The notes under the pieces were generated by a model. That model ran no database searches and was not told the DNA's origin. It saw only the letters and a program-made list of their open reading frames with translations. The position numbers and the translations under genes were made by a program. This document shows, piece by piece, positions 621 to 62,496 of a stretch of 64,000 nt of DNA; the first letter of the stretch is position 1, and each line of letters starts with the position of its first letter. This DNA comes from Pristiophorus japonicus (Eukaryota). The DNA is taken from the NCBI RefSeq assembly GCF_044704955.1, contig NC_091993.1, forward strand, positions 117,552,001 through 117,616,000, in the 5' to 3' direction.

Positions 621-1276
621 CAAGTAGAATTAAATTCTAAACCTTAGCAAAACACAGCCTGCCGCTACTCAGCAAACAGCTGATTTAATTAATTAGTTTT
701 CCTTAGATAATAAAGATCACTTATCTATTTAATTGCAGTTCCTAACTTCCACCAATGCCCAAGGTTTTTTAAAGAAAAGAAAAATACTCACCAATCCACC
801 AGCCAATCACTTACCTGCTTGACTATGACGTCATACTTCGATTTCGAATCTTTTTACTTTTTCTCCCTTACTTTAGTCGCTGCTGCAGCTCCTTGTTCCC
901 GATCTCCGACTCCTCCTGATCTCCGGCTCCTCCTGATCCGTGGCTCCTCCCGATCTCAGGCTCCTCCGACTGCCGCTGCCCTTTAGAAGTCCTGTGTTCA
1001 TGTCTCGCGATGCTCGCTCCTCATGAATGGGAGTGTGCCCACTTCCTGTCTGCATAACTTAACTTCTTGTTTCACATTTTTATTACAATTATTGTGTCAA
1101 TTTTGTAAACCTGAAAATATCACAAACACATGAACAATATTCTGTAAGAAATCGGCCACTTGACTTATTCATGCACTGGAAGCCGGTAGCTCTCATAATA
1201 TTTTGCACTTTTACTTGGGATGGAACTATAATGTATGCACCTGTGAGTATGCTCACAGGTTGGTAGAGCTGTTGCC

Positions 1277-2027
1277 CCTGGAAGAGTCCGTGTTCCATGT
1301 TTTAATTGAATATGCGAGGTTGCAGCCCTTATTCCAATATTTGAAGGGGCTGCTCCTCAAATTCTGGTTGCACTTCAGTCCCACACTCCTGATCTTTGGA
1401 CACCCTGTGCGGAGGCGAGCGGGCAGGTCGGAAGGCCTCCTGGAAGGACTGCTCCTAGGCATGGCCAAGGAGGCCATCAGCCGGTCCAGGCAGCGGGCGG
1501 TCGAGGGGGTCGTTCAGCCTGATTGCCTGCCTCTCTTCTGTGGTTACATCCGAGCCATGATGTCCCTGGAGATGGAGCACGCGGTGTCCACCGGTACGCT
1601 CGCGGCCTTCCGCGAGAGGTGGGCACCGGAGGGATTGGAGTGAATCATCAGCCCCGGCAATCAAATTTTAATTTGATTTTATGTCTAAATATTAATTTAT
1701 TTAACTTGCTGGTTTTAGTGCCCTCCGCCATTTAGCCAGGGCTCACTTGTATAATTTGTGTTTCAGTGCCCTCAAAAAAAAAAACAAGGGGGCACTTGAA
1801 AAGTTTTTGGAGTGTGCCCCCCCCCTTTCAGGGGGCACTTGATTACTGATTGCAACTAAAATAGTTGTAGAGCTGTTGCACCAGTGGGACTGAAGTGCAT
1901 CATCACCCCTGGCAACCAAATTTTAATTTGATTTAAGTTCACGGTAAAAAGATCATTTGTTTATTTGTCGGTTTTAGTGCCCCTCGTTAATAAGAGGACA
2001 CTTGATTTATAGTTTTGCACTAAAATA
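1277..2027 (+). mobile_element. Two 5'-truncated Tx1-clade LINE 3' ends (1277-1863 and ~1880-2027)
   Basis: EESVFHVLIEYARLQPLFQYLKGLLLKFWLHFSPTLLIFG... is the ORF2 C-terminus at and after the zinc knuckle. Each copy ends ...CTAAAATA followed by GTTGTAGAGCTG(T/C)TGC. Confidence 0.75.
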
Positions 2028-2255
2028 GTTGTAGAGCTGCTGCATTGTGAGTTGCTTAACCAATCACGTGATGTTCACAAGACTCAATAAAACCCCAGAC
2101 AGTTGGGTCTAGGTCATCCATGATGAGGTATGCGGTTGTGAGCCGAGTGGATGAACTGGTAATGTGTAGTGTGATTGTTAAACCTTTGTTAATAAACTAA
2201 CTAGTTCTGAATAGCAATGTGTTGCTATGAATTCTTAAGCAAAGAACCCATGAAG

Positions 2256-3170
2256 TTTGGGTCCCCAGTGGAGTGCACTCTATCTGGGAGTCCTCCCTCT
2301 ATTTATTGGGAACTTGGCCTGGAGGGTGTTGCACGGAGCAGTCCCGTGCAATAAGTTTTTAAGTTGGGTCACGGGCTCTCAGGCTGCCTCTAATTTCTGC
2401 GGTCGGGAAGAGCCCGTGTTCCACATTTTTAACGAATGTGTGTGGTTGCAGCCCCTCTTCCAATATTTGAAGGGGCTGCTCCTGAAATTCTGGTTGTACT
2501 TCAGTCCCACACTCCTGATCTTTGGGCACCCTGTGCGGAGGGGAGCAGGCAGGTCGGAAGGCCTCCTCATAGGAGTGCTCCTGGGCATGGCCAAGTGGGC
2601 CATCAGCCAGTCCAGGCAGCGGGCAATCGAAGGGGTCATTCAGCCCGACTGCCTGCCTCTCTTCCGAGGTTACATCCGAGCTAGGGTGTCCCTGGAGATG
2701 GAGCATGCAGTGTCCTCCGGTAAACTCACAGCCTTCCACGAGAGTTCAGCGCCGGAGGGACTGGAGTGAATCATCACCTCTGGCAACCAAATTTTAAATT
2801 GATTTTATGTGCAAAAGTTAATTTGTTTAATTTGGCACTTTTAGTGCTCCACCCCCATTTAGCCAGGGGGCACTTGTATAATTTGTGTTTCAGTGCCCTC
2901 AAAAAAAAACAAGGAGGCACTTGAAAAGTTCTTTTGGAGTGTGTCCCCCCTCCCCCCACCTCCGCTTTAATCAGGGGGCACTTGATTATTGTCTTCAACT
3001 AAAATAGTTGTAGAGCTGTTGGGCCGGTAGAACTGGAGTGCATCATCACCCCTGGCAACCAAATTTTAATTTGATTTAAGTTCATGATAAAAGGTTAATT
3101 TGTTTATTTGTCGGTTTTACTGTCCCCTATTAATAAGGGGGCACTTGATTTATAGTTTTGCACTAAAATA
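2256..3170 (+). mobile_element. Second pair of Tx1-clade LINE 3' ends (2256-3006 and ~3022-3170)
   Basis: LAWRVLHGAVPCNKFL...NFCGREEPVFHIFNEC is a zf-RVT CCHC-type knuckle; same tail and target motif as the first pair. Confidence 0.8.
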
Positions 3171-3418
3171 GTTGTAGAGCTGTTGCATTGTGAGTTGCTT
3201 AGCCAATCACGTGATGTTCACAGACTCAATAAAACCCCAGTCAGTTGGGTCTAAGTCATCCACGATGAGGTATGCAGTTGTGAGCCTAGTGGATGAACTG
3301 GTAATGTGTAGTGTGATAGTTTATTAACAAAGGTTTAACAAACTAGTTCTGAATAGCAATGTGTTGCTATGAATACTTAAGCAAAGAATCCATGAAGAAA
3401 ATACATTACAAGAACAGT

Positions 3419-5644
3419 GGCCCTGATTTTGTGTTGAGAATGAAGGTAAAGCGAACAGTGTTCACCGGAATTACGGAGTAAATGGGATCAGGAACTTCCT
3501 GAGTACACACATGCGCAGTTAAACATGGAAATCCAGAAGTTGCGATCCGAGTTACCCTCGGCATTGAAATCAGTGAATGGGTACTTACCCACTAGTTACC
3601 CATTATATATGGCAGGAAAAGGGCTGTTGCATTCAGGTGTAACTGAATTTTTAACAGCATGATAAATCATAATTACTGTCAAACAACCGCTCTTTTTATT
3701 TCACAAGTGTGGATGCTCATTCCTTCAGAATTTAGTTAATGTTTTAGAATTAAAAGTAAGAAATATATACATTTTTAAACTTTTTCTGTCTGTCTATTTT
3801 ATCTCTCTCTCTTAATCCAATCTTTTCCTCCAATCTTTATTTTGTTTCTGTACGTGATTTAAATCCATTTTATACCACCTGCTTTAGATTCTGCCGCGGC
3901 GAAGTTGGTCTCTGGAGCGCCGCTTATCCTGCTGCATCCTGTTGTTTGCCACCTGCTCCTGCAAGAAAGAGGGAAATGTATCAATGAGTGTGGTGCAATA
4001 TGTTTGGGTGGTGTGGTTGTCATGATTCAATAGCTGTCGGTGTGTGCAGGCTGTGGGATGTGCTGTGAGTCTTGCACCAGTGCTAAATGTGTGAGGGTCA
4101 GGTACAGTATATGAATGTTTGGAATGAGTCTTGGTTGATAGATATTGTTGGTAGACGAGTGATGGGTGTTATATGAATAGAGCAGTGGAGGAGGTTAATG
4201 ATGCAGTTGGTAGGATTTGACATTTGGAGATGCAGTCACTGACCTTGACAAATCTTGTGGGATCATTAAGGGGCCGATTTTCATCCAGGCCTCCGCCCAT
4301 CCAAGTGCCGCCCAAAGTGCTGCTGATGACCGCCCAGGTACCGGATGGTACTTTCGGTGGGATATTCATCGCCGAGGTCCCTCGAAGGTCGGCGGGCGGC
4401 AAGTGGACGATGCACGCCGCCAATCGAGGCAGCAGCGGGCGGGAGGTCCCATTCTCGGCGGCAGAGACGCTTGCTGCCCGAGTGTCACCGAGGATGGAAT
4501 CGGGCCTATGGAGGGTTGAAGACCTGAAAAAAAAAATGCAGGAGTAAAAAATAAAAAAACTATTGGAAGACCTCCAGGGGACCCCATGCAGGTACGTCAC
4601 TGTGGAATTAAAAAAAAATGTTCACTTACCTTTTTTTCAGGTTCTTCATACTGACCGTCGGGGACAGACCAGCCTCCATGCAGTGGTCCACCCCCGTTCT
4701 GCCACCGAGCCTCGCCGACTCCCACCCGCAGAAATCTGGCAGCTCGGCGGGCGGGAGGTCTGTCGCGCCACTCGGCTGGCCGCTGATGTCAGCACGCGGT
4801 TACCAGCGGCTCTCCCCTCCCTCCTGCTCCAGGCCACCTCGAATGTGGCACTGGGCGGAGCAAGAAGAGCATTGTCGGTGGCAGTGAGCGGCAGCGAGCA
4901 GTGAGGTGATGGATTTCAGCCCCGAAACTTCTTCCTTCACTGCATCCAGTTCCCTAGGGCTGTTCTCCGAGCATTAATCTCCTCTGCTATCACTTCCCAC
5001 TGCCTTCTGAGCTTGTTTCTGGAGGGTCCCCACCCCACCCTGAGGATACAAGACTTCTCTCCTTTCCATCTCTTCCACCAAGACCTACGGTGCAGTGTCT
5101 GAAAAACCTTGGTGCATGTTCTCTCCCGTGGTCAGCCATTGTTGATTCTTCCACAGCACAATATTCAGAATGTTCTCAGCCCCACCAGCAGCCACAATGC
5201 ACCTCCCCTTTCAGAGGTAGGGCCAGATTGAAGTAGTACTAGCCACTGCTGATGAGTGCCACCAATGAATCATGTGGGGAGCGCTGGCTGCAAACAAAAA
5301 CTAAGGAAATGAACAGGCAGCACAAAGTTGGTGCCTTGCCTGGGTTGCAATAAATGGGCACGGGTTAATCCTCAATAGCGATCCCTTTGCCCATTTTGTG
5401 GGGCTTATCCAAATTAGCACCCTGCGTGTCTCAGTGTGGATCCTGTAATCTGATTCATTGAAGAGACTTACTGTTTCTTGACTTGCTCACTGATGCCACA
5501 GATCCCCTATAGAGGGCGCCGCTCTCAATCAGCTGCCAGATGACAGCAAGTCTACGCTCAAATGTTGCAAAATCTCCGTGGGCAGCTGTCAGTGTAGTGA
5601 ACGGTGAGCATCGTTCCTTTGCCGCTGATCGCAAAATCCAGGCC
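3419..5644. mobile_element. Non-autonomous Harbinger-like TIR element with a nested Myb/SANT-gene remnant (- strand, ~3880-5420)
   Basis: Imperfect ~45-bp inverted termini (GGCCCTGATTTTG.../...CAAAATCCAGGCC). The - strand reads approximately APRFSDTA..VLVEEMERR and KKFND, typical of Harbinger Myb/SANT proteins. Confidence 0.55.
4270..4923. mobile_element. GC-rich Harbinger-type MITE inserted in the Myb/SANT remnant
   Basis: TIRs GGGGCCGATTTTCATC / GATGGATTTCAGCCCC with 3-bp flanks TAA/GAA. Removing it rejoins the KKFND-coding sequence. Confidence 0.65.
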
Positions 5645-8532: not shown

Positions 8533-9335
8533 TTACACACAGCAAGGCCCCATAAACACGTATGAAATAAATGAGCAGTTAATATCTTTTGGTGGCGTCG
8601 TTTCAGTGATAAATAGAGGTGAGGAAACCAGAAAAACAGAAGAACATAAGAAATAGGAGCAAGAGTAGGTCAGTAGGCGCCTCGAGCCTGAGACCATTAC
8701 ATTCCCAGCTGGCTTTGTATCATCAGCAAACTTGGATATATTACATTTGGTCCCCTCATCCAAATCATTGATATATATTGTGAATAGTTGAGGCCCAAGC
8801 ACCGATCCTTGCGACATCCCACTAGTTACAGCCTGACAACCCAAAAATGACAAGTTTATTCCTACTCTCGGTTTTCTGTCCGTTAACCAATCCTCAATCC
8901 ATGCTAGTATATTACCCTCAATCCCATAAACCCTGAGTTTATTTAATAGAACTCCCCTGCTTCTCTTTGAATAGTGCCGTGGGATCTTTTATGCCACCTG
9001 AACAGGTTGATGGGATCGCAACATCTTATTTGAAAGTTAGCACTGCATTTAGGTGTCAGCGTAGAGTTTGTGCACAAGTCTTGCATGGGGCTTGAACCCG
9101 TGACCTTCTGAGTCAGCGGCAGCTGTGGTGTCTGAATGTCCACAATGTGAGGCTTTTGTTACTTAGAAAAGTTGTTGTTCCAGTGAGGGAGCTGCACCAA
9201 TTAAATCCTGCTTATTGGGGATTTGCTTACTGTTAACGATTTGAAAGAAAGAACTTGCATTTCTATCGTGCCTTTCACATCTTCTGGACATCCCAAAGCA
9301 CTTTGCAGCCAATTAATTAATATTGAGGTGCAGTC
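8533..9335 (-). mobile_element. SacSINE1/DeuSINE-like fragments with a nested CR1 RT fragment (~8636-8935)
   Basis: [33 protein letters not shown]. Flanks match the SINE at 46415-46835. Confidence 0.65.
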
Positions 9336-12300
9336 ACACGCGTAGGGGCATCATGAGCCAGGTGGCGAGGCCGTACCCTTTGTCTCCCAGTCGCCAGCTC
9401 TGCCCTTCTGCCTGCATCTGAAACATGGCAGATGTAATGAACGCATCATGGGTGCTCCCAGGGTATCTTGCATCAACTGACATGATGCGATGCATGTTGT
9501 CACACACGAGCTGCACATTAATGGAGTGGAAGCTGTTTCTGTTCCTGTACATCTCGGAATCCTCCAAAGGTGCTCGCAACGTGATGTGGGTACAATCAAT
9601 GCAGCCCTGTACCTTGGGCAAACCAGCAATCCTGGAGAAACCCACAGCCCTGTCACACATTGCCTGGGTGATCATGGGGAACTTTATGTAGTCATTCTTC
9701 CGGAGATGTAGTGCAGCAATCACCTGCCGAATGCAGATATGTGTTGCAAGTCGAGAAATAAATGGCGCACACATCCTCAGTTGTAGCTTGGAACGATGCA
9801 GATTCATAGAATGAAAGTGCAGCTTTAACCTTCATTTCGACTGAAAAAGCAGTATTCCTGATGCTTCTAGGTTGCAGGTTTACTAACTCACAGCTCTCAA
9901 TTACAACTTCTTTGCGGAAACTCAGCCTTCTGACACAGTCTGCATCACTCAGGTGCAGGTAGAAACGCCTGTCTCGATATACCCGATGTGGGTAAGGCGT
10001 CCTGCCCATCACCCTATGTGCTCTGAGCTTCCTCATACGATGACGTCAAATCAACTGTCTCCTCCGCAGCACCATCATGCAGAAGGCTTGCAGAAGTTAT
10101 GGCATTGTCAGTATTGCCCCCATGATTAAATGTTACCTTTGCAAGAAGCTCAAAACGGCAGGCAGGCAGGACAAGTTTCATTGTTCTCTCTACCCACAAG
10201 GTCTGTATGGATCATACACAGGTCTGAGCAGGCACAGTGATCGGGAACGCCCCCCCCCCCCCACCCCCTGCAAACCCCCAGGCTTCATTTGATGCGGTGT
10301 CGGCTTCTGATGCCTTCTGTATACATTCCACAGCCCCCCCCGACTCCACTTCCCTGGGCTTGATTTGATGGGTAGTGCAGGCTTCATTTGCCTTCTGTAT
10401 GCCTTCTACAGCCCCCCACCTCCCCCTCCCCCCACCCTGCCGGAAACTTAGCCCCGAGCCCCTGTGTTCGTGCGAATATCAAATTCTGCCGGCCGACACT
10501 CCGATCCTTGAGCCCCGTGGTGGCGTGTCAGTTTTAAAAAGATGAAAACTTCAAGAATTCCATTAAGGTTCCATTTTCTGCGTTTTATGGTAAAAGAATT
10601 AAGCTTTATTCTGCATGTTTAAGTAGAAACATAGAAAATAGCTGCAGGAGTAGGCCATTCGGCCCTTCTAGCCTGCACCGCCATTCAATGAGTTCATGGC
10701 TGAACATGCAACTTCAGTACCCCATTCCTGCTTTCTCACCATACCCCTTGATCCCCCTAGTAGTAAGGACTTCATCTAACTCCTTTTTGAATATATTTAA
10801 TGAATTGGCCTCAACAACTTTCTGTGGTAGAGAATTCCACAGGTTCACCACTCTCTGGGTGAAGAAATTCCTCCTCATCTCGGTCCTAAATGGCTTCCCC
10901 CTTATCCTTAGACTGTGTCCCCTGGTTCTGGACTTCCCCAACATTGGGAACATTCTTCCTGCATCTAACCTGTCTAACCCCGTCAGAATTTTAAATGTTT
11001 CTATGAGGTCGCCTCTCATTCTTCTGAACTCCAGTGAATACAAGCCCAGTTGATCCAGTCTTTCTTGATAGGTCAGTCCCGCCATCCCGGGAATCAGTCT
11101 GGTGAACCTTCGCTGCACTCCCTCAATAGCAAGAATGTCCTTCCTCAGGTTAGGAGACCAAAACTGTACACAATACTCCAGGTGTGGCCTCACCAAGGCC
11201 CTGTACAATTGTAGCAACACCTCCCTGCCCTTGTACTCAAATCCCCTCGCTATGAAGGCCAACATGCCATTTGCTTTCTTAACCGCCTGCTGTACCTGCA
11301 TGCCAACCTTCAATGACTGATGTACCATGACACCCAGGTCTCTTTGCACCTGCCCTTTTCCTAATCTGTCACCATTCAGATAATAGTCTGTCTCTCTGTT
11401 TTTACCACCAAAGTGGATAACCTCACATTTATCCACATTATACTTCATCTGCCATGCATTTGCCCACTCACCTAACCTATCCAAGTCACTCTGCAGCCTC
11501 ATAGAATCCTCCTTGCAGCTCACACTGCCACCCAACTTAGTGTCATCCGCAAATTTGGAGATACTACATTTAATCCCCTCGTCTAAATCATTAATGTACA
11601 GTGTAAACAGCTGGGGCCCCAGCACAGAACCCTGCGGCACCCCACTAGTCACTGCCTGCCATTCTGAAAAGTCCCCATTTACTCCTACTCTTTGCTTCCT
11701 GTCTGACAACCTGTTCTCAATCCATGTCAGCACACTACCCCCAATCCCATGTGCTTTAACTTTGCACATTAATCTCTTGTGTGGGACTTTGTCGAAAGCC
11801 TTCTGAAAGTCCAAATATACCACATCAACTGGTTCTCCCTTGTCTACTCTACTGGAAACATCCTCAAAAAATTCCAGAAGATTTGTCAAGCATGATTTCC
11901 CTTTCACAAATCCATGCTGACTTGGACCTATCATATTACCTCTTTCCAAATGCACTGCGATGACATCCTTAATAATTGATTCCATCATTTTACCCACTAC
12001 CGATGTCAGGCTGACCGGTCTGCAATTCCCAATTTTCTCTCTCCCTCCTTTTTTAAAAAGTGGGGTTACATTGGCTACCCTCCACTCCATAGGAACTGAT
12101 CCAGAGTCAATGGAATGTTGGAAAATGACTGTCAATGCATCCACTATTTCCAAGGCCACCTCCTTAAGTACTCTGGGATGCAGTCCATCAGGCCCTGGGG
12201 ATTTATCGGTCTTCAATCCCATCAATTTCCCCAACACAATTTCCCGACTAATAAGGATTTCCCTCAGTTCCTCCTCCTTACTAGACCCTCCGACCCCTTT

Positions 12301-13907
12301 TATATCCGGAAGGTTGTTTGTGTCCTCCTCAGTGAATACCGAACCAAAGTACTTGTTCAATTGGTCCGCCATTTCTTTGTTCCCCGTTATGACTTCCCCT
12401 GATTCTGACTGCAGGGGACCCACGTTTGTCTTTACTAACATTTTTCTCTTTACATATCTATAGAAACTTTTGCAATCCGTCTTAATGTTCCCTGCAAGCT
12501 TCTTCTCGTACTCCATTTTCCCTGCCCTAATCAAACCCTTTGTCCTCCTCTGCTGAGTTCTAAATTTCTCCCAGTCCCCGGGTTCTCTGCTATTTCTGGC
12601 CAATTTGTATGCCACTTCCTTGGCTTTAATGCTATCCCTGATTTCCCTTGATAGCCACGGTTGAGTCACCTTCCCTTTTTTATTTTTACGACAGACAGGA
12701 ATGTACAATTGTTGTAGTTCATCCATGCGGTCTCTAAATGTCTGCCATTGCCCATCCACAGTCAACCCCTTCAGTATCATTCGTCAATCTATCCTAGCCA
12801 ATTGACGCCTCATACCTTCAAAGTTACCCTTCTTTAAGTTCTGGACCATGGTCTCTGAATTAACTGTTTCATTCTCCATCCTAATGCAGAATTCCACCAT
12901 ATTATGGTCACTCTTCCCCAAGGGGCCTCGCACAACGAGATTGCTAATTAATCCTCTCTCATTACACAACACCCAGTCTAAGATGGCCTCCCCCCTAGTT
13001 GGTTCCTCGACATATTGGTCTAAAAAACCATCCCTTATGCACTCCAGGAAATCCTCCTCTACCGTATTGCTTCCAGTTTGGTTAACCCAATCTATGTGCA
13101 TATTAAAGTCACCCATTATAACTGATGCACCTTTATTGCACGCACCCCTAATTTCATGTTTGATGCCCTCCCCAACATCACTACTACTGTTTGGAGGTCT
13201 GTACACAACTCCCACTAACGTTTTTTGTCCTTTGGTATTCTGCAGCTCTACCCATATAGATTCCACATCATCCAAGCTAATGTCCTTCCGAACTATTGCC
13301 TTAATTTGCTCCTTAACCAGCAATGCTACCCCACCTCCTTTTCCTTTTATTCTATCTTTCCTGAATGTTGAATATCCCTGGATGTTAAGTTCCCAGCCCT
13401 GATCATCCTGGAGCCACATCTCCGTAATCCCAATCACATCATATTTGTTAACATCTATTTGCACAGTTAATTCATCCACTTTATTGCGGATACTCCTTGC
13501 ATTAAGACACAAAGCCTTCAGGCTTGTTCTTTTAACACCCTTTGTCCTTTTAGAATTTTGCTGTACAGTGGCCCTTTTTTTCGGTTCTTCAGTGTTCTTC
13601 ACTCCCACCAAAATTTTGCATAAAAACAACGCCGTCTTTCTGCGCCGATATTTTGATGTGAGCTGGTTTTTCTTAAGTCACCAGAATGTTTTTCGGGAGT
13701 GGTCACATCCGCCAAACGAGGAGAAATTTAAATTGGCCAAACTTACATAATTGTGAAAAACTGGCGCAGACATCAGGTTACACACAAAAAAAACTAACCG
13801 AAAAAAATTGCAACTGAGTTACGCTGGCGCACGTTGATCGGGGAAACTTGTATTTTTTAAACTTAGGCCAGAAAAAACGGCACAAATCACTGAGGAAATT
13901 TGAGCCC
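9334..13907 (-). mobile_element. Degenerate Harbinger transposon (HARBI1-type DDE transposase at ~9334-10150), interrupted by a CR1
   Basis: VQGCIDCTHI...YRNRNSFHSINVQLVCD...VDARYPGSTHDAFI...LGDKGY, with frameshifts; TIR-like end GGAAATTTGAGCCC at ~13894-13907. Confidence 0.8.
10625..13579 (-). mobile_element. Young 5'-truncated CR1 LINE with near-intact ORF2 (APE endonuclease + RT) and one nonsense codon
   Basis: ORFs 12784-13629 and 10714-12780 are in the same frame, separated by TGA at 12784-12786 (TGG in the sister copy at ~34923). Motifs LNARSIRNK, MGDFN, SDH, QGSVLGP, FADD; 3' tail present. Confidence 0.95.
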
Positions 13908-16088: not shown

Positions 16089-19000
16089 GTGAGTGACATT
16101 CAGAGCGGGATATTCAGATAATCAGTGTTAGTTTGAGTCTAGTGTACGGTTCATGCAGCAGCGATGTTTAAATACTTGTAGACATGTAAAGGCACAAGAT
16201 ACTCAGCAAAAATATACAATGTATAATATTTGTGTGAAGTCTTGTAATCTCTTTTTGACTGCACTATATTGTACCACACACATATTTACCAATATATACT
16301 AAACTGCATTATTTATTGTGAATGGAAAATAAAGGGTGCATTTAATTTTTTTTAAAGCTACACGAGTAACATAATCAAGATGCAAAGGACACCCATTTTA
16401 ATCTGTAAAAAGTGATTTTTACTGTAGTCTGATGTCCAATATACACTGAAGACTGCAGTGGTAATAATCCCTCACACAGAACATGTCTGGAGCTTGCAAT
16501 TGTTTCTGTTATTTAAAGTACAGCTGATGAAGTATTGCTTTATGAGGCTCTGTCAGTGACACTGTTTCTCACTGCTAGAGGCTGGGTCTATATTAAGCAA
16601 CCATTTCCTTCTCACTCTTTAACTCGAAACAAGTAAATTTAGCTTTTTCACTCCCGCCCCATATTAACCTAACGGTATTATGCTATAATGGAAGATTGGA
16701 TTAATACTGCCACCTCTCCTCCATTTATGACGAATCTTTATTCCCAGCAATGCTGAACTCCCAGTCTCACCCTACCCTAAGCCACGACAGTTAATTCTAT
16801 TGCATCAAACCTCCCCATGAAGATTTGTGTCTCCAGCTTACCAATTTTACGCAGAATACTTTATGAACTTCTGTACATGCAACTGACGCGAGCCTCTGTC
16901 TGTTTGGCATCTTCCTCTTTTCAGTCCTTCCTCCTTCTGATCTGATCTCATTTACCTCCCCGATTCCACCTTTTATCTTTCCTATCTCCTTTTCCCTATC
17001 AACTCTTCTCTCTGCCTCTTCACATTTTTAACCTCCCTCCGCCATTTTAGTGTAAACTCTTTTCCCACAGCACGAGCTGCTCTCCCAGCAAGGCCATTGG
17101 TCTAATAACTGTTCAACTAAAGTCCCCCCGTCCTTAACAGGCCGCTCCTCTTCCAGAACTGGCCCCAATGTGCCAGGAATCTGAACCCTTTTCTTCCAAA
17201 CCATCTCTCTAGACAAAGAATCATGTCCTTTATCTCATTATTTTCTCTCTCTCCTCGCTCCCCCCCCCGCCCCACCACTATTCTCTCTCCCCACGATGTC
17301 TCTCTCTCTCACTCTCCCTTCTCTCACTCTCCCCACTCTCCCTCCGTTCCCCACTATCTCTCGCTCTCTCACCCCTCCCCCACTCTCTCTCTCTCAACCC
17401 CACCCTTCTTCTCTTTCTCCCTTCCACCCTCTCCTCTTTCTCTCTCCTCCCCGTCTCTCTCTCTCCCCCTTAGTCTCTCTCTGTCTTCCCCTGTCTCTCG
17501 TTTGCCCTATCTCTCTGTCTCTGTCTCACCCGTCCCTCTCTCTCTCCCCCCCACCCCGTCTCTCTCCACCTCATCCCTCCCGCTTCTCGCTCTCTCTCCC
17601 CAGTCTCTCTCTCTCTCTCACTCTGCCATCCTCCCTCATCTCTCTCTCTCCCTCTCTCTCTCCCCTCCCTTCTTCACTCAGTCTCTGCCTCTCATCTCTC
17701 TCTCCCCCTTCTCCACTCTCTCCCACCAGTCGCTCTCTTGCCCTGTCTCTCTCTTACCCCCATCTCATTCTCTCTTCGCCCCCCCCCCATCATTCGCTCT
17801 CTTCTCCCCCCATCTCTCTCTCTCTCACTAACCCGTCTCTCTCTCTCCCCGCCCTATTCTCCACCCCCGTATCTCTCTCTGTTTGCCCTCAATTTCTCTC
17901 TCCCCCCCCTTTCATCTCTCTGTCCGTCCCTCTCAATCTCGCTCCCCTGCCCCTCCTCTCTCTCTCCCCCTTCCTCCTCTCATCTCTCTTTCTGCCCAAT
18001 CTCCCCCCTCCCTCTGCCTCTTTCTCTCTCTTCTCCCCCTCCTCTCTCACTCTCTCTCCCTCCCTCTACTGTCCCTGTTCCCCATTTCTCTGTCTCTCTC
18101 CCCCCCTCTCTCTCTCTTCCACCCCTCTCTTATCTCTCTCAGCCCATGGCTCTATCTCTCCCATCTCTCACCCCCCTTTTCTCTCTCCCCTCTCCTCTTT
18201 CTCTCACCACCCCCCCCCCAAGTCTTGCTCCTCCCAGTCTCTCTGTCCCTCCTTCCAGTCTCTCTCTTCCCCACCCCACCGTCTCTCTCTTTCACCCCCC
18301 TTCTCCCTCTCTATCTTTCTCCCCCATCTTTCTCTCTTCCCCCCCATCTTTCTCTCTTCCCCATCTCTCTCTCCCCCCCATGTCTTTCTCTCTCTCTTAC
18401 CCCCCCACTTTTCGCTTCCCCATCTCTCTCTTCCTCCCTGACTCTCTCTCTCTCTCTCTCACGCCACTCCACCCCCCCATCCCCCATCCCCTAGTCTCTC
18501 TCTCTTTCCCTGCTCCCAGTCTCTCTCTCCCCGCTCGCGTATCTCTCTCTTCCACACCCCCCTTTCCTTTTTCTCGACCCCCCCCTCTCTCCTCTCTCTC
18601 TCTTGCCCCTCCCCTCACGCCAACCCCCCACACCGGTCTCTCTCTCTCTGTGCCCCCAGTCTCTCTCTCCACGCTCGCATATCTCTCTCTCGGCCCCTTT
18701 CATTTTTCTCAACCACCCCCCCTCGCTCTTCCCCTACCCCCACTCCGCCCATCTCTCTCTCTCTCCTCCTTCCCTTCTCTCTCCCCCTTCCCTTCTCCCT
18801 CTCTCTCTCTCCCTCACCCCAGTCTCTCTCGTCCATGGGTTTCTCTCTTTCTTCTCCCCCGTCTCTTTCTTTCCCCCCATCTCTCTCTCTTCCCCCTCCC
18901 CCTGTCTCTCTCTCTCTCTTCCCCCGTCTCTCTCTCTCTCTTAGACCCCCGTCTCTCTCTCACTCGATCCCCCCCAGTCCCTCTCTCTCCCGTGTCTCTC

Positions 19001-22000
19001 TCTTCACCCCATCTTTCTCTCCCACCCGCCACCCCCCCGTCTTTCTCTTCCCCGCCCGCCGCCCCCCCGCCGGTCTCCCTCTCCCTCTGTCCCCAGTCTC
19101 TCTCTCCCTGCTCTCATATTTCTCTCTCCCTCCCTTTCATTTTACTCGACCCTCTCCCCCCGAAGTGTCTTGCTCCCCCCCAGTCTCTCTATCTCTCTTC
19201 CCCCCCATCTCCCTCTCCCCATCATCTCTTTGTCTCTCCCCCACATCTCTCTCTGTCTCTCTCCCCCTTCTCCTCTCTCTCTTCCCCATTTATCTATCTG
19301 TCCCCGCAGACTCTACCAACCCCTCATGTCTCTCTCCCCCAACACCCCCCCACTGAGGTGAATGATCAGCCATGATCTTATTGAATGGTGGTGCAGGCTC
19401 GAAGGGCCGAATGGCCTACTCCTGCACCTATTTTCTTTGTTTCTATGTTTCCACTCTCTTTCTCCGCCCCCCACCTCCCTCCCCCCACATCTCACTGTCT
19501 CTGATCCGTGTGTCTCTGGCTCTTCCCGCTTCTCCACACTCTCTCCCCACATTCTCCTCTCTCCCCCCGTGTCTCTCTCTCTAACTTGCCTCCATGTCTC
19601 TCTTCTCACCGTCTATCTCTTCCGCCCCCCCCGCCCCGTCTCTCTCTCAATTCCAACCCCCCGGAACTCTCTCTCTTCCCCCCTCCCCTGTCTATCTCTA
19701 TCTCATCCCCACCCAGTCTCTCTGTTCCCCGCCTGCCCTCGCTCACCCCCCGCTCTTTCTCTTCCCCCTCTCATCTCTCTCTCCACCCTCTCCCCCCGAC
19801 TCCCTCTCTCTCTCTCTACCACTCCTTTCTCACTCTCTCTCCCTTCATCTACTCTTTCTGTCCACCCTGCTTCTCTGTCTCTCTCTCCCCCCTCCTCTCT
19901 CTCTCTCCCCCCCTCTCTTATTTCCCACCTCTCCCTTTGTGTGTCTCTCTCACCCTTCTCTCTCCCCCCTTTCCTCTTTCTCTCCCCTACCCATATCTTT
20001 CTCCACCATCTCTCTCTCTCTCTTCCCGTCTCTCTCTCCCCCTTGTCTCTCTCCCCTGTCTCTCTCTCTCTCACTCTCGCACCCCCCCGTGACTCCCTCT
20101 CTCTCCCCCTCTCCTATCTCTCTCCCCCTTTCTCTCTTGCCCCTCTCCTCTTTCTTTCTCCCCGCCACCCCGTGTCTTGCACCCCCCAATCTCTCTATCT
20201 CTCTCTTCCCCCATCTCTCTGCCCCATGTCTCTCTCTCTCTCCCTTGTCTCTCTATCACGCCCCCGAATCTCTCTCTTCCCCCCCACCCCGTGTCTCACT
20301 TGTTCTCTTCCCCCCATCTTTCCCTTTTCCCCACATCTCTCTCTTTCCCCCGTGTCTCTTGCTCTCTTGCCCCCCGCCCAACCTGGTGTCTCCCCTCTCA
20401 TATCTCGTTCACACTCACCCCCTCTCACCTATCTCTCTCCCCCCTTTCATTTCTCTCTCCCCCCTTCTCTCTCTCTCTCTCTCTCTCTCTCCCACCCGTC
20501 TCCCTCTCTCCTGCCCGTCTCTCACTCTCTCTCCCCCCTCCCCTTCTCTCTCTCTCTCGACCCAGTCTCTCTGTCTCGCCACCGTGTTTCTCTCTCTCGT
20601 CCCCCCTCGTCTCTCACTCTCTCTTCCCCCCCATCTCTCTCTCACCCCCCCACCTGTCTATCTCTCTCTCAAACCCCCTCTCCGTCTCTCTCTCTTTCTC
20701 TCTCTCCCATCCCCCGTCTCCCTCTCTCTCTCTCCGCTCCTCCCCTCTATCTCCCCTCTCTCCCCCATCTGCCATTTCTCTCTCTCCCCCCTCTCTTCTC
20801 TCCCGCCACCCCCCACCCCCCAGCCACCCCCCCACCCCCGTCTCTCTCTCTCTCTCTCCCTGTAATGTATATAATGACTCAAAATACTTGTTACTGTAAA
20901 CTCACTCAGGTACAAACCTGGTTCAACTTTATTCACAGCCAAAGTGCCACATGACATGATACTCGCTCTTATGTACCAGGGCCCATGCGCACGCGCACAC
21001 AGCCCGATGACCTCCAACAGTGGCACCCCCTGGTGTCTGGTGACCCCAAGTGTCAATACGTAACAACATCCCCTTCAAGATCTTAGTATCAGTCTCTTTA
21101 CAAATTAAGATGGACTGGGGCTCTTCGCTCATGAGTTGATCGCCTCAGTTCAACTCCAGTTCTGGGCAAGCGTTCTGAGACAGTTATGACTGGAGGCTGA
21201 GTAACTAATCTGATGGGAGCGGTAATGACCCTATCAGAGACTGAAAGTCCAGATTCAGTAATGACAGTAGAGACTTCTGATAAATGAATATTGGTTGGTT
21301 GCTCACTGACTGCATCTTCCTCAACTGGTTCCGGTTCATTCGTGTGCCGCAGTTTTATCTGATCAACATGTTTCCTGCATGTTTGCCCATTCTTGAGCAT
21401 GAAATAAACACTCTGTTACCCTCCTTGGCCGTAACAGTACCGGTGATCCATTTTGGACCATGACCATAATTCAGCACATCAACTGGATCGTTGACAGAGA
21501 TGCCATGTGACACAGCAGCAAGGTCATGATACCATTGCTGATTTTGCCGTCTATTTTCAACATGATCATTCAAATCAGGATGGACAAGAGAAAGCTTGGT
21601 CTTGAGACTTCTCTTCATCAGTAGTTCAGCATGTGAGGTAAGCGCGTGAGGTCTTGTCCTGTAACTAAGCAATATACGTGACAAATGAGTCTGCAGTGAA
21701 TCCTGAGTCACACATTTCATGCTTTGCTTGACCGTTTGAACCGCACGCTCTGCTCGACCATTAGACGAAGGTTTGAATGGAGCAGACCTTTCATGTCTGA
21801 TACCATTGAGTTTCATGAACTCCTGAAACTCAAGACGTGTGAAGCGAGATCCGTTATCGCTCACAACAATGTCAGGCAAACCATGAATAGCAAACATGAC
21901 ACAAAGGCTCTCAATAGTAGCTGTGGACATACTGGATGACATGATAATACACTCTATCCACTTCGAATATGCATCCACCAGAACAAAAATCATCTTTCCC

Positions 22001-25000
22001 TGGAAAGGGTCCGCAAAATCGATGTGTATCCTCGACCATGGTTTAAGTACTGCTGGTACTTTACTTAGCTGCATGCATGTATTGCACTGATGCACACATG
22101 ATTCCAGATCAGAGTCAATTCCAGGCCACCAAACATGAGCCCTGGCAATGGCTTTCATCATGACTATGTAGTTCATGTACAAATTTTTCTCTGCCTTTCT
22201 TAGGCATAACAACACGATTGCCCCACAGTAGACAATCTGACTGAATGGATAGTTCACCTTTGCGACGGTTGTAAGGTTTGGTCTCATCACACATTTCCAT
22301 AGGTATTGCAGACCAATCACCATTGAGGACACAATGTTTCACAACCAATAAAATAGGATCATGGCTGGTCCAGATCCTCACTTGTTGAGCAGTGACAGGA
22401 GTTCCTTCACTCTCAAAAGCATCCATTACCAACAGGAGATCTGCAGGTTGAGGCGTCTCCACTTGAAGTGTGAGCAACAGCAGACGACTCAGTGTATCGG
22501 CACAGTTCTCAGTGCCAGGTCTATGATGAATAACATAATCATAGGCAGACAATGTCAACGCCCACCTCTGGGTACAGGACGATGCATTGGTGTTAATACA
22601 TTTGTTTTCCGAAAACAATGAAATGAGTGGCTTGTGATCCGTTTTGAGTTCAAAACGAAGACCAAGCAGGTACTGATACATCTTTTTGACCCCATACACA
22701 CAGGCCAAATCTTTTTCTACCATGCAGTAAGCTCTTTCTGCCTTTGACAAACTTTTTGAAGCATACACAACAGGTTGTAGCTTACCTGATTCATTTGCTT
22801 TTTGTAGTACACAGCCAACCCCATATGATAAAGCATCACCGGCCAATACAAGACGCTTACACGGATCATAGTGAACAAGCAGCTTGTTCGAACAGAGCAA
22901 ATTCTTGGCTTTCTCAAAAGCTCTATCTTGAGATACACCCCAGGCCCAGTTGTTGCCTTTTCTGAGCAGTATGTGCAGTGGCTCTAATAAAGTGCTCAAT
23001 CTGGGTAAGAAATTACCGAAGTAGTTGAGTAGTCCAAGGAATGAACGCAGCTCTGTCACATTCTGAGGTCTGGGTGCATTTTTGATGGCCTTGGTTTTCG
23101 AATCAGTAGGTCTGATGCCATCAGCAGCAATTTTCCTCCCCAGGAATTCAACTTCAGGTGCCATGAAGACACACTTTGAACGTTTCAGCCTGAGTGCCAC
23201 TTTGTCCAGACGATGTAGGGCTTCTTCAAGATTGTTCAGATGTTCAGCAGTGTCGCAACCCATGACCAGAATGTCATCTTGAAACACGACGGTTCTAGGA
23301 ATGGACTTCAGTAGACTCTCCATGTTCCTCTGAAATATGGTTGCAGCCGAACGGATTGCAAAAGGACACCTGTTTTAGACAACAAGTCCTTCATGGGTGT
23401 TGATGCAGATGATGCAGTTTCTTTGAAGTGTCGACAAGCTCCTGCGTCATATAGGCCGGCATCAGATCCAGTTTCGTGAATGACTTTCCACCAGCTAGCG
23501 TGGCGAACAGGTCATCAGCCTTTGGTAGCGGATACTGATCCTGTTTCGGAAATTTGTTAATCGTAACCTTGTAGTCTCCACAGATCCTGACAGTGCCATC
23601 ACTCTTTAACACAGGAACAATAGGATTGGCCCATTCGTTAAATTCGACCTGCGATATGACCCCTTCATGTTGGAGTCTGTTAAGCTCAATTTCGACCTTC
23701 CCCCTCATCATGTACAGAACAGACTGAGCTTTATGATAGACAGGTCTTGCATCAGAATCCAGGTGAATCTGCACCTTGGCTCCAGTAAAATTGCCAATGC
23801 CCTGTTCAAACAAAGAAGGAAACCTCTTCAGCACTTGAGCACACCAAGTGTCATCCACACTTTGATATCATTCCAGTTCCACTTGATTTTCTCGAGCCAA
23901 ATTCTGCCGAACAGCGTTGGACCATTGTCTGGGACGATCCATAATGGTAAGTCGTGAACCACACCATCATACGACACCTTGACTATGCACTGCATATGAG
24001 TTCCTTAGTGCAGGTACGCAACTTGGCATTGACTGGACTCAGCTTAGGCTTCACAGCCTCGGTGCCCCACAGCTTGTCGAATGTTCTTTGGCTCATTATC
24101 GACTGACTCGCACCCATGTCCAGCTCCATTGCTACAGGCACGCCATTAGCTTAACATTAACGATTATCGGCTGGCTCTTTCCCAAGGATGAAAACAGACC
24201 ATACACCTCCTCCTCGGCTTGTGTATCCGAACCAGCACTGGACTGGTCATCATCAGCAATGTGATTAGCGGCACCACGTCTGCTTAGTTCTCTGAAGATG
24301 CCCCATTTTTGAACAGCCTTTCCAGATGTACTGTTTAAACTGACACTGATGAGGCCGATGATTGCCCCCACAACGCCAACAGGGTGAAATCGGATTCGTA
24401 CCAGTTGGCTGACTTTGAGCAGCTACAGGTTTCACATAAGCAGTCGAATAGGCCCTGCCATAAGCAGCTCTGTCAGACGACGACACAATCTTGTTTACAG
24501 TACTTGCCGTGGAGCTCCAACTCTTCAATGATATCTGCCTTAAATTATCATCAGTTGCCATTCATGCCTGGGCAGTCGTGATGGCCTTGCTCAAATCCAG
24601 CGTTTCTGCAGCCAATATTTTCCGAAGGATCACACCATGGTTGATGCCTATCACAAAGAAATCTCACAGCTTGTTTTCCAACGCGTTTCCGAATTTACAC
24701 GCCTCAGCGAGATGTCTTAGATTGGCGACGAATCCCGACACATCCAGACCCTCATCACGAACATGTGGGTAGAAGCGATAGCGTGAGATGATGATCCCCT
24801 CTTTTGGCTTTAGATGTTCACACACCAGAGCGCACAAATCCCCATACTCTTTGTCCGTTGGACGTGCAGGCGAGAAGATTCTTTGAGGTCATAAATTTTT
24901 GGACCACAAACGGTGAGGAAAACCGCCCTGCGCCTAACTGCGTCACCAGCTTCCTCCATTTTGTTGGCCACGAAATACTGATCCAGGCAGTCGATAGAAT

Positions 25001-28000
25001 CCGCCTAATCCTCACCATCCACGAATCTCTCCAGAATTCCAATGGTACCCATTGTGCATGCGAAGATTCTTAAATTATCTCGTCGCCAAATGTAATGTAT
25101 ATAATGACTCAAAAGAGTTGTTACTGTAAACTCACTCAGATGCAAACTTGGTTCAACTTTATTCGCGCCCAAAGTGCCACATGACATGGTAATCACTCTT
25201 ATACACCAGGGCTTGCGCATATGCGCATACAGCCCGATGACCTCCGACAGTAGCGCCCCCTGGTACCTGGTGACATAACACTCCCCCCCCCCCCCCCCAC
25301 CCCCATCTCACTCTCTCTCCTCTTCCCCATCTCGCTCTCTCTCCTCCATTGCTCTCTCCCTCACACACTCATCTCTCTCTCGCCCTCCCGCTCTCTCTTC
25401 CCCACCCCACATCTCTTTGTCTCTGGCCCCCGTGTCTCTCTCTCTCACCCCTTCTCCTCTCTCTTTCCCCCCCCCCTCGCCCCGTGTCTCTCTCTCTCTC
25501 CTCCCCACATCTCGCTCTCTGTCCTCCATCTCTCTCTCTCCCTCCCATCCTGATCTCTCTCTCGCCCCTCTCTCTCTCCCTACCTCTCTCTCTCCAACCC
25601 CGCCCCCCATCTCTCTGTCTCTGGCCCCCATATCTTTCTTTTGCCTCTTCTCCTCTCTCCCTCTCCCCCCCCCCAGCCCCCGTCTCTCTCTCACCCCGGC
25701 TCTCCCTTCCCCCCCCCCCATCCCCGTCTCCCCCCCCTAGCGTCTCTCTCTCTCTCTCTTCCCCCTCCCCATCTCTCTTTTCCCCCCTCCCGTCTCCATC
25801 TCCTTCCCACCCCCATCCCGCTCTCTCTCCTCAGTCTCTCCCTCACTCTCCCCCCCTCATCTCTCTCTCTCCCAACTGTCTCTGCCTCCCATCTCTCTCT
25901 CACCCTTCTCCTCTCACTTTCCCCCCCCCCCCACCCCCGTGTCTCTCTCTCTCTCTCTCTGTCCCTAGTCTCTCTCTTCCATCCACTCATATCTTTCTCG
26001 CTGCCCCGCAACCTCTCTCCCCTCCACTCATTTCTCTCTCCGCCCCCTCTCCTTTCTCTCTTCCCCCACCTGCCCCCGTCTCTCTCTCTCTCTCTCTTCC
26101 CCCTCTCATCTCCCTCTCTATTCCCTCCCTTGCTCTCCCCCCTCTACTCTCTCTCTCCCACCTTCTCCCATCTGTCTCTCTCTCTCCCCGCCAGTCTCCA
26201 CCACCGCCCCCCCCAGTCTCTCTCTCTCCCCAATGTCTCTCTCTCTCTCTCTCCCCTCCCGTCTCTCACTCTCTCCCACCCTCCCATCTCTCTCTCCACA
26301 CCTCTCTCTCTTCCCCCTCCTCTAACATTGTCCCCTGTCTCTCCCTCTTCTCCTCTCTTTCAGTCCCCCTCTCCCTCCGTCTCTCTCTCTCTCTTCCCCC
26401 CCAGTCTCTCTCTTCCCCCCATCTCTCTCTCTTCCCCCATCTCTCCCCCCTCCGTCTCTCTTAGTTCCACCCATTCCCGCACCAAACCCCCCCCCCCACC
26501 GGCTCTCTCTCCCTCCCTCTTCCCCCAGTATCTCTCTTTCCCCTGCCTCCCTCTATCCCCTGCCCCTCTCCCTCATCCCTCTCTCACCCCATCTCATCTC
26601 TCTCTCCCCTCCTCCACCCCCCATCTCTCTCCCCCTCTACCCCCATCTTCCCCCCACCACCCCCGTATCGCTCTCCCACCCCCATCTTTCTTTCCCTGCT
26701 CCTCCTGTCTCTCCCTCTCTGCTCCATCCTGTCTCTCTCTCTCTCCCCCTTCCACCCCGCCCAATCCTCTTCCTCCCCCCCGACTCTCTCTCTCTCTCTC
26801 TCTCCACCCGCCATGCCCCACGCTCCCCGCCCCGGTCTCGCTCTCTCTCCCCCTTGTCTCTCTCTCTCCCTCTTTCCCCCGTGTCTCTCTCTCTCTCTCT
26901 CCCCCCACATCCCTGTCTCCCTACTCCCCGACCCCGGTGTTTCTCTCTTCCTCCCCCATGTCTCTCTCACTCTCCCCCCATGTCACTCTCTCTGCCCCTC
27001 ATCTCTCTCTCTTTCTCTCTCCACCAGTCTCTCTCCTTCTCTCTCCCCCAGTATCCCTCTCTCCCCCCGCCCCTCTGCCTCACTCTCCCTCCCACCTCTG
27101 TCTCTCTCTCTCGCTCCGACCCCTGTCTCATTCTCTCCCTCCCCTCCCGTCACTCTCTCCCTCCCCTCCCCTCCTGTTATTCTCTCCCTCCACCCCCACC
27201 ACCGTTCTTTCTGTTCCTCCCCCACATTTCTCACTCCCCCATGTCGCTCTCTCTTTCCCCCCCCAGTCTCTCTCTCCCCCAGTCTGTCTCTCCTCCACCC
27301 TCCGTCTCACTCTCCCTCCCACCCGTCTCTCTCTCCCCCCCCGCCCCCGTCTCTCATTCTCCCCCCCCACCATCTCTCTCTCCCCCCTTTCATCTCTCTC
27401 TCCCCACCTCGCAACTCTCGCTCCCTTCTCCTCTCTCTCCTCCCTTCTCCTCTCTTTCCCCCCAGTCTCTCTCTCTCTCTCTCCCCCAGTCTCTCTCTCT
27501 CTCCCCAGTCTCTCTCTCTCTCTCTCCCTCTCTACCCCAGTCTCTCTCTCTCTCTCCTCCCAGTCTCTCCCTCTCTCCCCCCGTCTCTCTCTCTCCCCCC
27601 GTCTCTCTCTCTCTCCCCCCGTCTCTCTCTCTCTCCCCCCAGTCGCTCTCTCTCTCTCCCCTCAATCTCTCGATCTCTCCCCTCAATCTCTCGATCTCTC
27701 CCCCCAGTCTCTCTCTCTCTCCCCCAGTCTCTCTCTCTCTCTCCCTCCCCCCTAGTTTATTTCGCCCCCCTCCCCAGCTACCCCCCCCCCACCAATCCTG
27801 TCTGTCTCTCTCTCTCTCTCCCCGTCTCACTCTCTTCCCTCCGCCGCCCCCACCTGCCACTGTCTCTCTCTCTCTCTCATTGTCTTTCTCCCCCTCCTCT
27901 GTCTCCCCGTCTCTCTCTCTTACCACCCCAGTCTCTCTCTCTCTTGCTCGCCCCCCAGTATCCCTCTCTCTCTCTCCCACTCCGACAATGTTTTCTCTCA

Positions 28001-53870: not shown

Positions 53871-55878
53871 TTCTCTGTCCTCAGCCTCCTACACTGTTCC
53901 AATGACGCTCAACATAAGCTCAAGGAACAGCTCTTCAACTTTCTATGAGGCATTTTATAACCTTCCGGACTCAACATTGAGTTCAATCATTTCACATCAT
54001 CGTCTTTGCCACCATTTTTTCGGATGGCAGCTGATGCTGGTGATTCTGCTTTTCCCATTTACACCTCCTCTCGACCCATCTTTTGTTTCTTTACTGGTCC
54101 CATTACCATCTACTTTTGTCTTGCACCATTATCCCTTTTTGTCATGTAATCACTCCTGCCTTCCACCCCATCACGGATATTCCCCTTTTGTTCTTTCCTC
54201 CCCTCCCCCATTTCCCTGCCTCTGTACTTATTTAAAACCTGTTACATCGCTAACCTTTTCCAGTCTGACGAAAGGTCATCGACCTGAAACGTTGACCGGA
54301 ATATTCCCAGCCCCCGAGTGCGGGTTTGGAGGCGGGCCTGCTGTCAAAATGGCCCTGATTGATAGTGGGACGGGATCCCTCTCTGAACCCGCCTCTGTGC
54401 CTGTTTCCCAACTGTCTGGTGTGCCTGCGGATCGCAGACCCGTCACCAAGCCACGGGCTAGTTAATTAAGATAGTTAACCGGTGGTTGAATGCTAATTAA
54501 GTAGGCACTTACAATTTTACCAAACTTTTGATGACTTTGCCGTCCCTCGGGGAACACACGAGGTAAGTGGAGTCGGGTTCTCCATGACTCTCCATTACTT
54601 TGGCTAGTTGACATCTGCAAAAGTGATATAAAAGCTACCATTTCACAGCTGTTCACTTTCCAATGTCAGAAGCTGAAGCCATCAGGATTTGGAAGAAACT
54701 TTTGAGCTGTATGCAGTTTGGAAGTATTTGCAGTGAACTCTCTATTCACTGTCACCTAATTGGAGCAACCTCTCTCATAATTGACAGATCACTTCTTTCA
54801 TCTCAACCTCATCTGCCATCTATTCCAGCAGCATTGTTGCCCTTGAAAGAGTCTCACCTTGGTCCTCAGAATCCCACCACGATCAGCCCCAACACCAACA
54901 TCATCAACAACACCAACCTTCTCCGCAAACTCTTGATGCTGCATGGACACAGGGCATCAGCACCCGACCATATTGCTGCCTGGGAGGGCAGGGATGGCCT
55001 CACTATGGCCACATTTACTTCACTTGACGCTGTACACCCTGGCTGCCACATGATGCGCCAGGTTGGCACCACCTCACAACAGCTCCATCAAGCATCCCTG
55101 CAATGGCCAAGTCATTCCTTTTACACTCATCACCATTGTGGGGAGTGCAGAACACTGACCGAAGAACTATCAAAATCAATGTGGGCATGGTCCCTTTAAT
55201 TAGACCCGCTTCCTGTTAATTAGCCAGGAACCTCGCAGGGCGGGCTTAACACACTGTCTCCCTCTCTCTCACACACACTCGCTCTCACACACACACTCTC
55301 TCCCTCTCACTCGCTCTCTCTCTCTCCCTCTCACTCGCTCTCTCTCCCTCTCACTCGCTCTCTCTCCCTCTCATTCGCTCTCTCTCCCTCTCACATGCTC
55401 CCTCTCTCTCTCTGGAAGATTGCTTCAATTGCCACCGATGCGAGCCACTCCGGACCCACCATGGGTGGCAGAATCGCCGCCGTTAACTCTGTTTCTCCGC
55501 AGGTGCTGCCTGATCTGCGTATTTCTACCATTTTCTGTTTTTATTTCAGCATTTTAGCATCCGCAGTATTTTGCTTTTGTCCAAACTAAATATATGTTGT
55601 AGTGTACCCATGTACTCCTTCAGATTAAAATTAACCAGAAGAACAGGAGCAAACATTTTACAGTTGCGATAAATGTTGACCAGATCAATGGGAGAAACCA
55701 CGGCTCTTCTTCAAACTATGGGATCTTTTATGTCCACCTGAGAGGGCAGGCAGGGTTAACATCTCAACCAAAGTGTAGCACCTATTGACAGTGCAGCACC
55801 CCCTCAGTACTGCACTGAACTGCCAGCCTGGATTATATGCTCAAGTCTCTGGAATGGGGCTTGAACCCACAACCTTCT

Positions 55879-58800: not shown

Positions 58801-59233
58801 TTTTTAAACTATTTTTGTGACAGAAATTTCTGTCTCACAGAACTAAATGGTGCTATTTTTAATGAGTACTCCTCATAAAACTCCTTCCAAACTCCCACAA
58901 CAGCCAAACAAACCACAAATACCTACACAACAAACCCACACTAGCTTTCTCTTCCTCTGCTCTCTCGATCCTCTTCTGCGCATGTATTGATGACCCCTGA
59001 CCTCCTAAAAGGCGGGAAAAGACCGTTGCTATGGACGCCGACATTTTACGACAGAAGAAAAAAAAAATACCGCTAATGCCCATTTCACATCACTCCCACT
59101 AATGCCCATTTTATAAAGTGGAAACTAGGGTTTGAAAATGGCCAATAATCCGGCGATCTCAAAACCCATAATAAACACCACCGCTGGAAATAACGCCCAT
59201 TTTGGGCGATCTGCGTAATAGAAAGTCTAGCCC
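55879..59233. mobile_element. Harbinger internal-deletion derivative: truncated transposase (+) and convergent Myb/SANT gene remnant (-)
   Basis: TIRs GGGCTAGACTTTC / GAAAGTCTAGCCC and 3-bp TSD TCT inside a SINE. ORF 56315-56593 fuses an N-terminal stub to the C-terminal LRQQLINERFA. Confidence 0.82.
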
Positions 59234-62490: not shown

Positions 62491-62496
62491 TCTTAC

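Follow-up and report, generated by a model that had tools for sequence, protein, structure and literature searches.

In a 64-kb stretch of Pristiophorus japonicus DNA (the window, that is, the whole sequence analysed), fragments of a Tx1-like LINE lie within an LTR, where they were probably stacked by an endonuclease that nicks a 15-bp LTR site, each insertion duplicating that site. We put the probability of this reading at about 0.75. The locus begins with the flank GGAAC and LTR sequence (1227–1260), followed by a copy of the 15-bp motif, a long LINE fragment (long 1), a motif, a short fragment (short 1), a motif and the 3' part of the LTR; there follow long 2, a motif, short 2, a motif, the LTR 3' part for a second time and AGAAC (Table 1). 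All four LINE fragments share one orientation.

Table 1. Positions of the LTR, motif and LINE features in the window.
Feature	Position	Strand	Remarks
Left 5-bp flanking duplication, GGAAC	1222..1226	.	4/5 bases match 3411-3415
Probable solo LTR, 5' part through motif 1	1227..1275	+	Unlike flanks before 1229 in contigs
Perfect 9-bp inverted repeat	1239..1260	.	Equally long in 9/20,000 shuffled 49-mers
Motif 1 (probable LTR target site)	1261..1275	+	Motif search; base 1262 minority variant
Long fragment 1	1276..1864	+	Tx1-like ORF2 C-terminus, ~190-nt 3' UTR, three stem-loop modules, no poly(A)
Stem-loop modules, long fragments	1716-1842, 2842-2985	.	Sequence
Motif 2	1865..1879	+	Motif search
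Short fragment 1	1880..2028	+	Second subfamily; last ~16 codons, short UTR, one stem-loop module
Stem-loop modules, short fragments	1975-2005, 3117-3148	.	Sequence
Motif 3	2029..2043	+	Motif search
LTR 3' part, copy a	2044..2255	+	Without last 13 bases; CCAAT 2060, AATAAA 2086 and 2191
Long fragment 2	2256..3007	+	ORF2 frame at 2257-2766, zf-RVT zinc knuckle (weak match); 5' end without motif
Motif 4	3008..3022	+	Motif search
Short fragment 2	3023..3171	+	5' truncation point as in short 1; 134/148 aligned bases identical
Motif 5	3172..3186	+	Motif search
LTR 3' part, copy b	3187..3410	+	Complete to ATACATTACA; 25-bp inversion 3317-3341
Right 5-bp flanking duplication, AGAAC	3411..3415	.	Sequence

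The 12-mer core of the motif, TAGAGCTGTTGC, searched with at most one mismatch, was found five times in the window (at 1264, 1868, 2032, 3011 and 3175), all within 1264–3186, against 0.32 copies expected by chance, and none of 100 shuffled sequences reached five. The best reading of the duplicated unit is the 15-mer TTGTAGAGCTGTTGC, which starts at 1261, 1865, 2029, 3008 and 3172; a search for it with three mismatches allowed returned just two further matches in the window, both isolated and both with three mismatches. A preliminary description of this DNA had rightly recorded the repeat from 1259, 1864, 2028, 3007 and 3171, always at the boundary of a LINE fragment (five of the five copies adjoin one), and had given its length as 16 bp. 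The G at 1864, 2028, 3007 and 3171, however, is the final base of the LINE end CTAAAATAG, which leaves 15 bp for the duplicated unit. The extra G at base 1262 is a minority variant: T accounted for about 89–91% of contig depth in each of the four runs introduced below, and the 15-mer is therefore the site common to the LTR and the junction. The LTR does resume after the last motif, as had been described, but it also resumes after the third. Upstream of motif 1, the arms of the perfect inverted repeat in the LTR (1239–1247 and 1252–1260) end exactly at the inferred first nick, a position that was noted post hoc.

The host repeat, which spans 1227–3410 including the insertions, is about 273 bp long and, to judge from its sequence, is probably a solo LTR of Gypsy type. 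It has TG...CA ends, short inverted termini (TATAATGTAT and ATACATTACA, 10 bp with 9 of 10 positions complementary), 5-bp flanks, a CCAAT box and AATAAA signals, all features by which LTRs are recognized. A non-autonomous DNA transposon was also considered and is disfavoured by the TG/CA-type ends, the 5-bp duplication and the CCAAT and AATAAA signals. An internal Gypsy region linked to the LTR was not seen in the window. The RT-RNaseH-integrase remnant of an LTR retrotransposon lies at 20861–25274 (minus strand) between two 87%-identical repeats, and degenerate CT-rich low-complexity tracts (17200–20860 and 25270–27920) flank this remnant on both sides. The terminal 10-mer is identical in the focal LTR and in these repeats; the body of the LTR aligned with them no better than shuffled sequences did. 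The two LTR 3' copies also differ by an exact 25-bp micro-inversion (2175–2199 versus 3317–3341), which abolishes the second AATAAA in copy b.

Contigs of four DNA runs (X1–X4) were placed on 1100–2405 at 80% likeness, 53,885–63,687 of them per run. The runs represent one sample of one study, possibly the source of the window itself, X2 and X3 resemble one data set, and contig depth was not taken as copy number. Unlike flanks before 1229 were present in 729, 980, 980 and 914 contigs of X1–X4, respectively (agreement 0.36–0.37), and past 2255, 677–747 contigs per run went on into the LTR end and then into unlike flanks; the LTR, bordered on either side by hundreds of unlike sequences, is thus dispersed. 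Empty LTRs with a single motif, which the preliminary description had proposed to look for, were present: 475, 515, 514 and 491 contigs (X1–X4) passed from the LTR 5' part via the motif straight into the LTR, their divergence from the window sequence falling after 1274/1275. These empty LTRs formed two groups that diverge from the window at 1274 or at 1275, which suggests that the LTR exists in two variants differing at the final motif base. Among the joints listed (15 of 908), 1272→2041, 1272→2045, 1274→2054 and 1269→2049 omit the entire insert. Another of the joints listed, 1274→1858, found in 5, 3, 3 and 3 contigs, connects the LTR with only the last LINE bases and a motif. In these contigs about 10 bases of the LINE 3' end stand between two motifs, and such forms are possibly abortive insertions. 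Joints 1254→1858 and 1261→1858 contain unknown letters, may be alignment breaks and were excluded from nick placement. In run X1, the rows listed (12 of 800) included motifs after which the LINE began at 1563 or 1597. Altogether, the LINE starts at no fewer than five different 5' points after the motif, two of them in the window (1276 and 1880) and the others in contigs (about 1858, 1597 and 1563).

A fixed LINE 3' end, variable 5' starts and an empty site with one motif together make up the footprint of target-primed reverse transcription. Because the contigs include empty LTRs with one motif and, in a few cases, other truncation points, duplication of the target site is the most likely origin of the motif copies. 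The earlier idea that the motif is the duplication of a site-specific LINE is thereby supported in part, but the duplication has 15 bp and only two or three events stand behind it. Compared with the Kojima criterion (>20% of flanks genome-wide), what was observed here is four of four LINE ends in the window, which amount to 2–3 independent events.

All four LINE 3' ends in the window read CTAAAATAG and then the motif, and this 9-mer is absent from the rest of the 64 kb. Long and short fragments represent two subfamilies, about 78% identical over the part that aligns, which have different UTRs and sit in one register at the motif. Their UTRs contain stem-loop modules of the form AGTGCCC...GGGCACT, the loops of which are unrelated; the long subfamily has three such modules and the short one has one. 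In both long copies a TGA lies ten codons ahead of the position at which the short copies stop. Short 1 was extended 5' into ORF2 by 72 and 53 contigs (loose ends at 1886). The ORF bins were roughly 10–30 times deeper than the 3'-terminal bins, depth being a rough sign only; given this excess, much of the lineage probably has other UTRs, and most of it may differ in UTR and target alike.

Placement of the LINE in the Tx1 clade is well supported but indirect. The open frame at 2257–2766 encodes 170 residues with a weak zf-RVT match (E=0.005, below the Pfam cut-off). A phmmer search with the C-terminal frame gave 243 relatives at E<=0.001, 150 of them listed. Twenty were looked up; sturgeon, medaka, Prochilodus and Amia were represented among the first ten, and the second ten included six from whale shark, one from sawfish and one from turtle, which points to a shark or ray as the probable host of the LINE. 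The window piece was 34% identical (E=2e-27) to the medaka protein P0158, whose cluster holds a ‘transposon TX1 uncharacterized 149 kDa protein’, and showed no similarity to the CR1 ORF of the window. A profile search yielded 11 longer proteins, including P0160 (62% identical) and a full-length turtle ORF2, P0162 (38%); full-length relatives, the turtle protein among them, carry an APE endonuclease and an RT. For the Tx1-like LINE itself, neither an RT nor an endonuclease was found within the 64-kb window. In a tree of 18 C-terminal pieces (18 rows, without an outgroup and without families of known target), the two window pieces grouped with three proteins (100/99), and this group was nested with sturgeon and turtle proteins (100/99). 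The view of these fragments as Tx1-type 3' ends is therefore borne out, by the phmmer relatives and the C-terminal tree, as Tx1-like ORF2 3' ends.

The best match of the turtle ORF2 among solved structures was L1 ORF2p. Its endonuclease reached 80 bits with the L1 enzyme that carries the grafted Tx1L loop (2V0R) and 71.6 bits with wild-type L1, and among solved endonuclease-only chains the LTx chimera scored highest. As read from the sequence of this 38%-identical proxy, the B5-B6 loop has 11 residues, the length described for the Tx1L loop in PMC1950540. A PDB search with the C-terminal profile gave no match. The DNA of the relatives with its flanks had no matches in viral contigs and none in metagenome contigs, and protein-pattern scans for relatives yielded 3 and 21 candidates, none of which was confirmed. 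One locus from a rumen MAG (L001) was rejected as a relative, its match of 22 residues being put down to chance. In two sawfish gene models, P0002 (monoglyceride lipase-like) and P0030 (dynein heavy chain-like), a piece of the LINE C-terminus is spliced in, which reflects either mis-annotation or exonisation.

Other elements were also noticed in the window. Many LINE copies are present, for example at 10624–13677 (minus strand), 32630–35171 and 44279–46272, which we take to be CR1-like; one has long open endonuclease and RT frames, and a fourfold ATAGAAAC repeat at 7696 adjoins the end of one such LINE. A DDE_Tnp_4 nuclease fragment, presumably of Harbinger type, lies at 9334–9831 (minus strand). 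The only clear host-gene piece noticed was an immunoglobulin V-set exon at 28334–28798 (plus strand; Pfam E=3e-11), presumably CD300/pIgR-like.

The number of insertions is smaller than the number of motifs. Positions 1280–2255 and 2406–3397 are one repeated block, 86% identical, and short 1 and short 2 begin at the identical base, which points to a single short insertion. Four independent insertions are ruled out by this common truncation point. Nor does simple tandem duplication suffice by itself: long 2 extends 146 bases further 5' than long 1, and divergence is uneven. Mismatches between the blocks numbered 51/368 in the ORF, 26/219 in the UTR, 14/148 in the short fragment and 12/204 in the LTR (chi-square p=0.028); the long fragments (77/587) differed from short plus LTR (26/352) with a Fisher p of 0.007, or 0.023 without CpG-type changes. 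Copy 2 had the minority base of copy 1 at 4 of 8 positions in the LTR, 1 of 7 in the short fragment and 2 of 20 in the long one, a count based on 35 of the 40 rows listed (of 394) after leaving out 1262 and four rows without a second copy. The best reading of the five motifs is 2–3 insertion events plus a block duplication. Most simply, the short fragment would have been inserted once and the long one once or twice, and duplication at the DNA level or unequal exchange would have created the joint at 2255/2256. Thus, the head-to-tail stacking of long and short copies at the motif, as first described, holds for the layout, but the second long, short and LTR block is largely a duplicate.

Three other explanations were weighed against site-preferring insertion. 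The motif could be the LINE's own captured 3' tail, with the element entering many kinds of site and the LTR being one landing place reached by homology, an alternative that the preliminary description had raised and that we consider unlikely. Neither LINE UTR has a poly(A) tail, an AATAAA or an ATTAAA, and the first 6–11 motif bases pair with the LINE end, both as would be expected of a captured tail. However, hundreds of contigs show the motif as part of an LTR in which no LINE has inserted, and within the window the motif that follows a LINE end always leads into the LTR or another LINE fragment. The loose ends point the same way, as no abundant unlike flank followed the LINE end or the motif among the 24 listed of more than 5,000, a weak observation since their ranking is opaque. 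It is also conceivable, with a low probability in our estimate, that the LINE has no site preference and entered the LTR once or twice by chance, the further copies being due to retrotransposition of the LTR or to segmental duplication. The truncation point shared by short 1 and short 2, the minority bases common to the LTR 3' copies (4 of 8 listed) and the extensive copying of the first block in the second would all fit such passive spread, but two different subfamilies occupying the same nucleotide and the at least five 5' start points after the motif do not.

Finally, the second block could be a 3' transduction, in which a read-through RNA comprising LINE, motif, short fragment, motif and LTR was reverse-transcribed into an LTR end by homology. 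This would account for the 146 additional bases of long 2, for the greater divergence of the long copies than of the LTR copies, and would suit a UTR without its own poly(A) signal. But the block reaches the true LTR end and a matching 5-bp flank, beyond both AATAAA signals and without a poly(A) scar, and the same facts are explained by unequal exchange between alleles sharing the short insertion; we regard a transduction as highly improbable.

Under the preferred reading of site-preferring insertion, and by analogy with Tx1L and other APE LINEs, the bottom strand would be nicked between 1260 and 1261 and target-primed reverse transcription would follow. The duplication would result from a further cut, placed about 15 bases downstream. 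Each insertion would regenerate the target, so that later copies could stack head to tail, and the long, short and LTR block would have been doubled afterwards, when duplication at the DNA level or unequal exchange broke and rejoined the locus at 2255/2256. More speculatively, an RNA without its own poly(A) signal might read through the motif to the AATAAA of the LTR, and the copied target might aid priming. If the LINE RNA does carry target sequence, the register of the nick cannot be fixed.

The junctions themselves may bear on this last point. At all four (1850–1879, 2010–2043, 2990–3022 and 3153–3186), the last bases of the LINE and the first bases of the motif are complementary and can form a hairpin with an AAA loop. 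In the short copies, 10–11 pairs form with the motif (P=0.002–0.003 with one bulge allowed, in a post hoc test of copies that represent one event); this hairpin relies on G-U pairs, with -9.7 and -11.0 kcal/mol for the sense strand versus -2.2 for the opposite strand. Long 1 has six pairs (P=0.011 without a bulge and 0.067 with one). Folding energy was not significant in either long copy (P 0.15–0.30), nor was the register test in long 2 (P 0.12–0.16). The hairpin hints that read-through RNA helps in site choice. A tentative and rather doubtful extension would be a tail-less Tx1 lineage that carries its target in its RNA: after read-through, the 3' end would fold with the first ~10 target bases as a signal for RT binding and then pair with the nicked DNA. 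Site choice would then be partly RNA-guided and perhaps reprogrammable, and the palindrome at the nick would serve as a structural cue. Precedents for read-through RNA, as described in PMC4494074 and PMC7265360, are R1Bm and co-transcription with targets. R1Bm resembles the window LINE in a read-through RNA whose target sequence aids priming, which for the latter is an inferred property only, and differs in belonging to the R1 clade and in its rDNA target. If the hairpin proved to be selected, the choice of target would be linked to the RNA for the L1/Tx1 group.

It has been reported that the crocodilian families Tx1-8_Crp and Tx1-4_AMi prefer LTR retrotransposons (PMC4494074). These are the nearest precedents and had been left out of the earlier list of Tx1 families; they are likewise Tx1-type LINEs with an LTR retrotransposon as preferred target, although in another host lineage, and the comparison is one of target descriptions as given in that source. 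For Tx1-Mar and SINEU-3, which insert in Mariner-N4_AMi, the same paper describes a duplication of 16 bp and insertions in tandem with a duplication sandwiched between them (PMC4494074). As here, the target is in an abundant mobile element, the duplication is of similar kind (16 bp there versus 15 bp here), insertions occur in tandem and the question of hitchhiking arises; in contrast, their target is a DNA transposon and has another sequence. The Tx1L endonuclease of Xenopus laevis is reported to nick its Tx1D target almost exclusively in vitro (PMC1950540, PMC4494074). Tx1L is similarly a Tx1-type APE LINE specific for a site within another transposon, but its target is a DNA transposon of piggyBac type, and the window element is known without its endonuclease. 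Keno, also of the Tx1 clade, targets U2 snRNA genes (PMC4640811); it is likewise a site-specific LINE, and the 15-bp motif loosely resembles the U2 site motifs printed in that paper. An Rfam scan of 1000–3700 gave five weak matches, all below the gathering score and none to U2. A U2-like, Keno-type target was rejected: the flank is LTR, no U2 match was obtained, and the resemblance is, as we take it, apparently out of register with the Keno junction in U2 numbering.

No published shark Tx1 family with a 15-bp target was found in the literature; Repbase or the supplements of these papers may record one. A preference for LTRs is known from published Tx1 relatives; what is probably new here is the 15-bp target of a LINE that is itself probably site-preferring. 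The locus is a probable cartilaginous-fish case of a LINE, from a very abundant lineage, that parasitises a mobile element at one nucleotide. It would add a further natural specificity to those of APE-type endonucleases, and as such may be relevant to tools for site-specific insertion.
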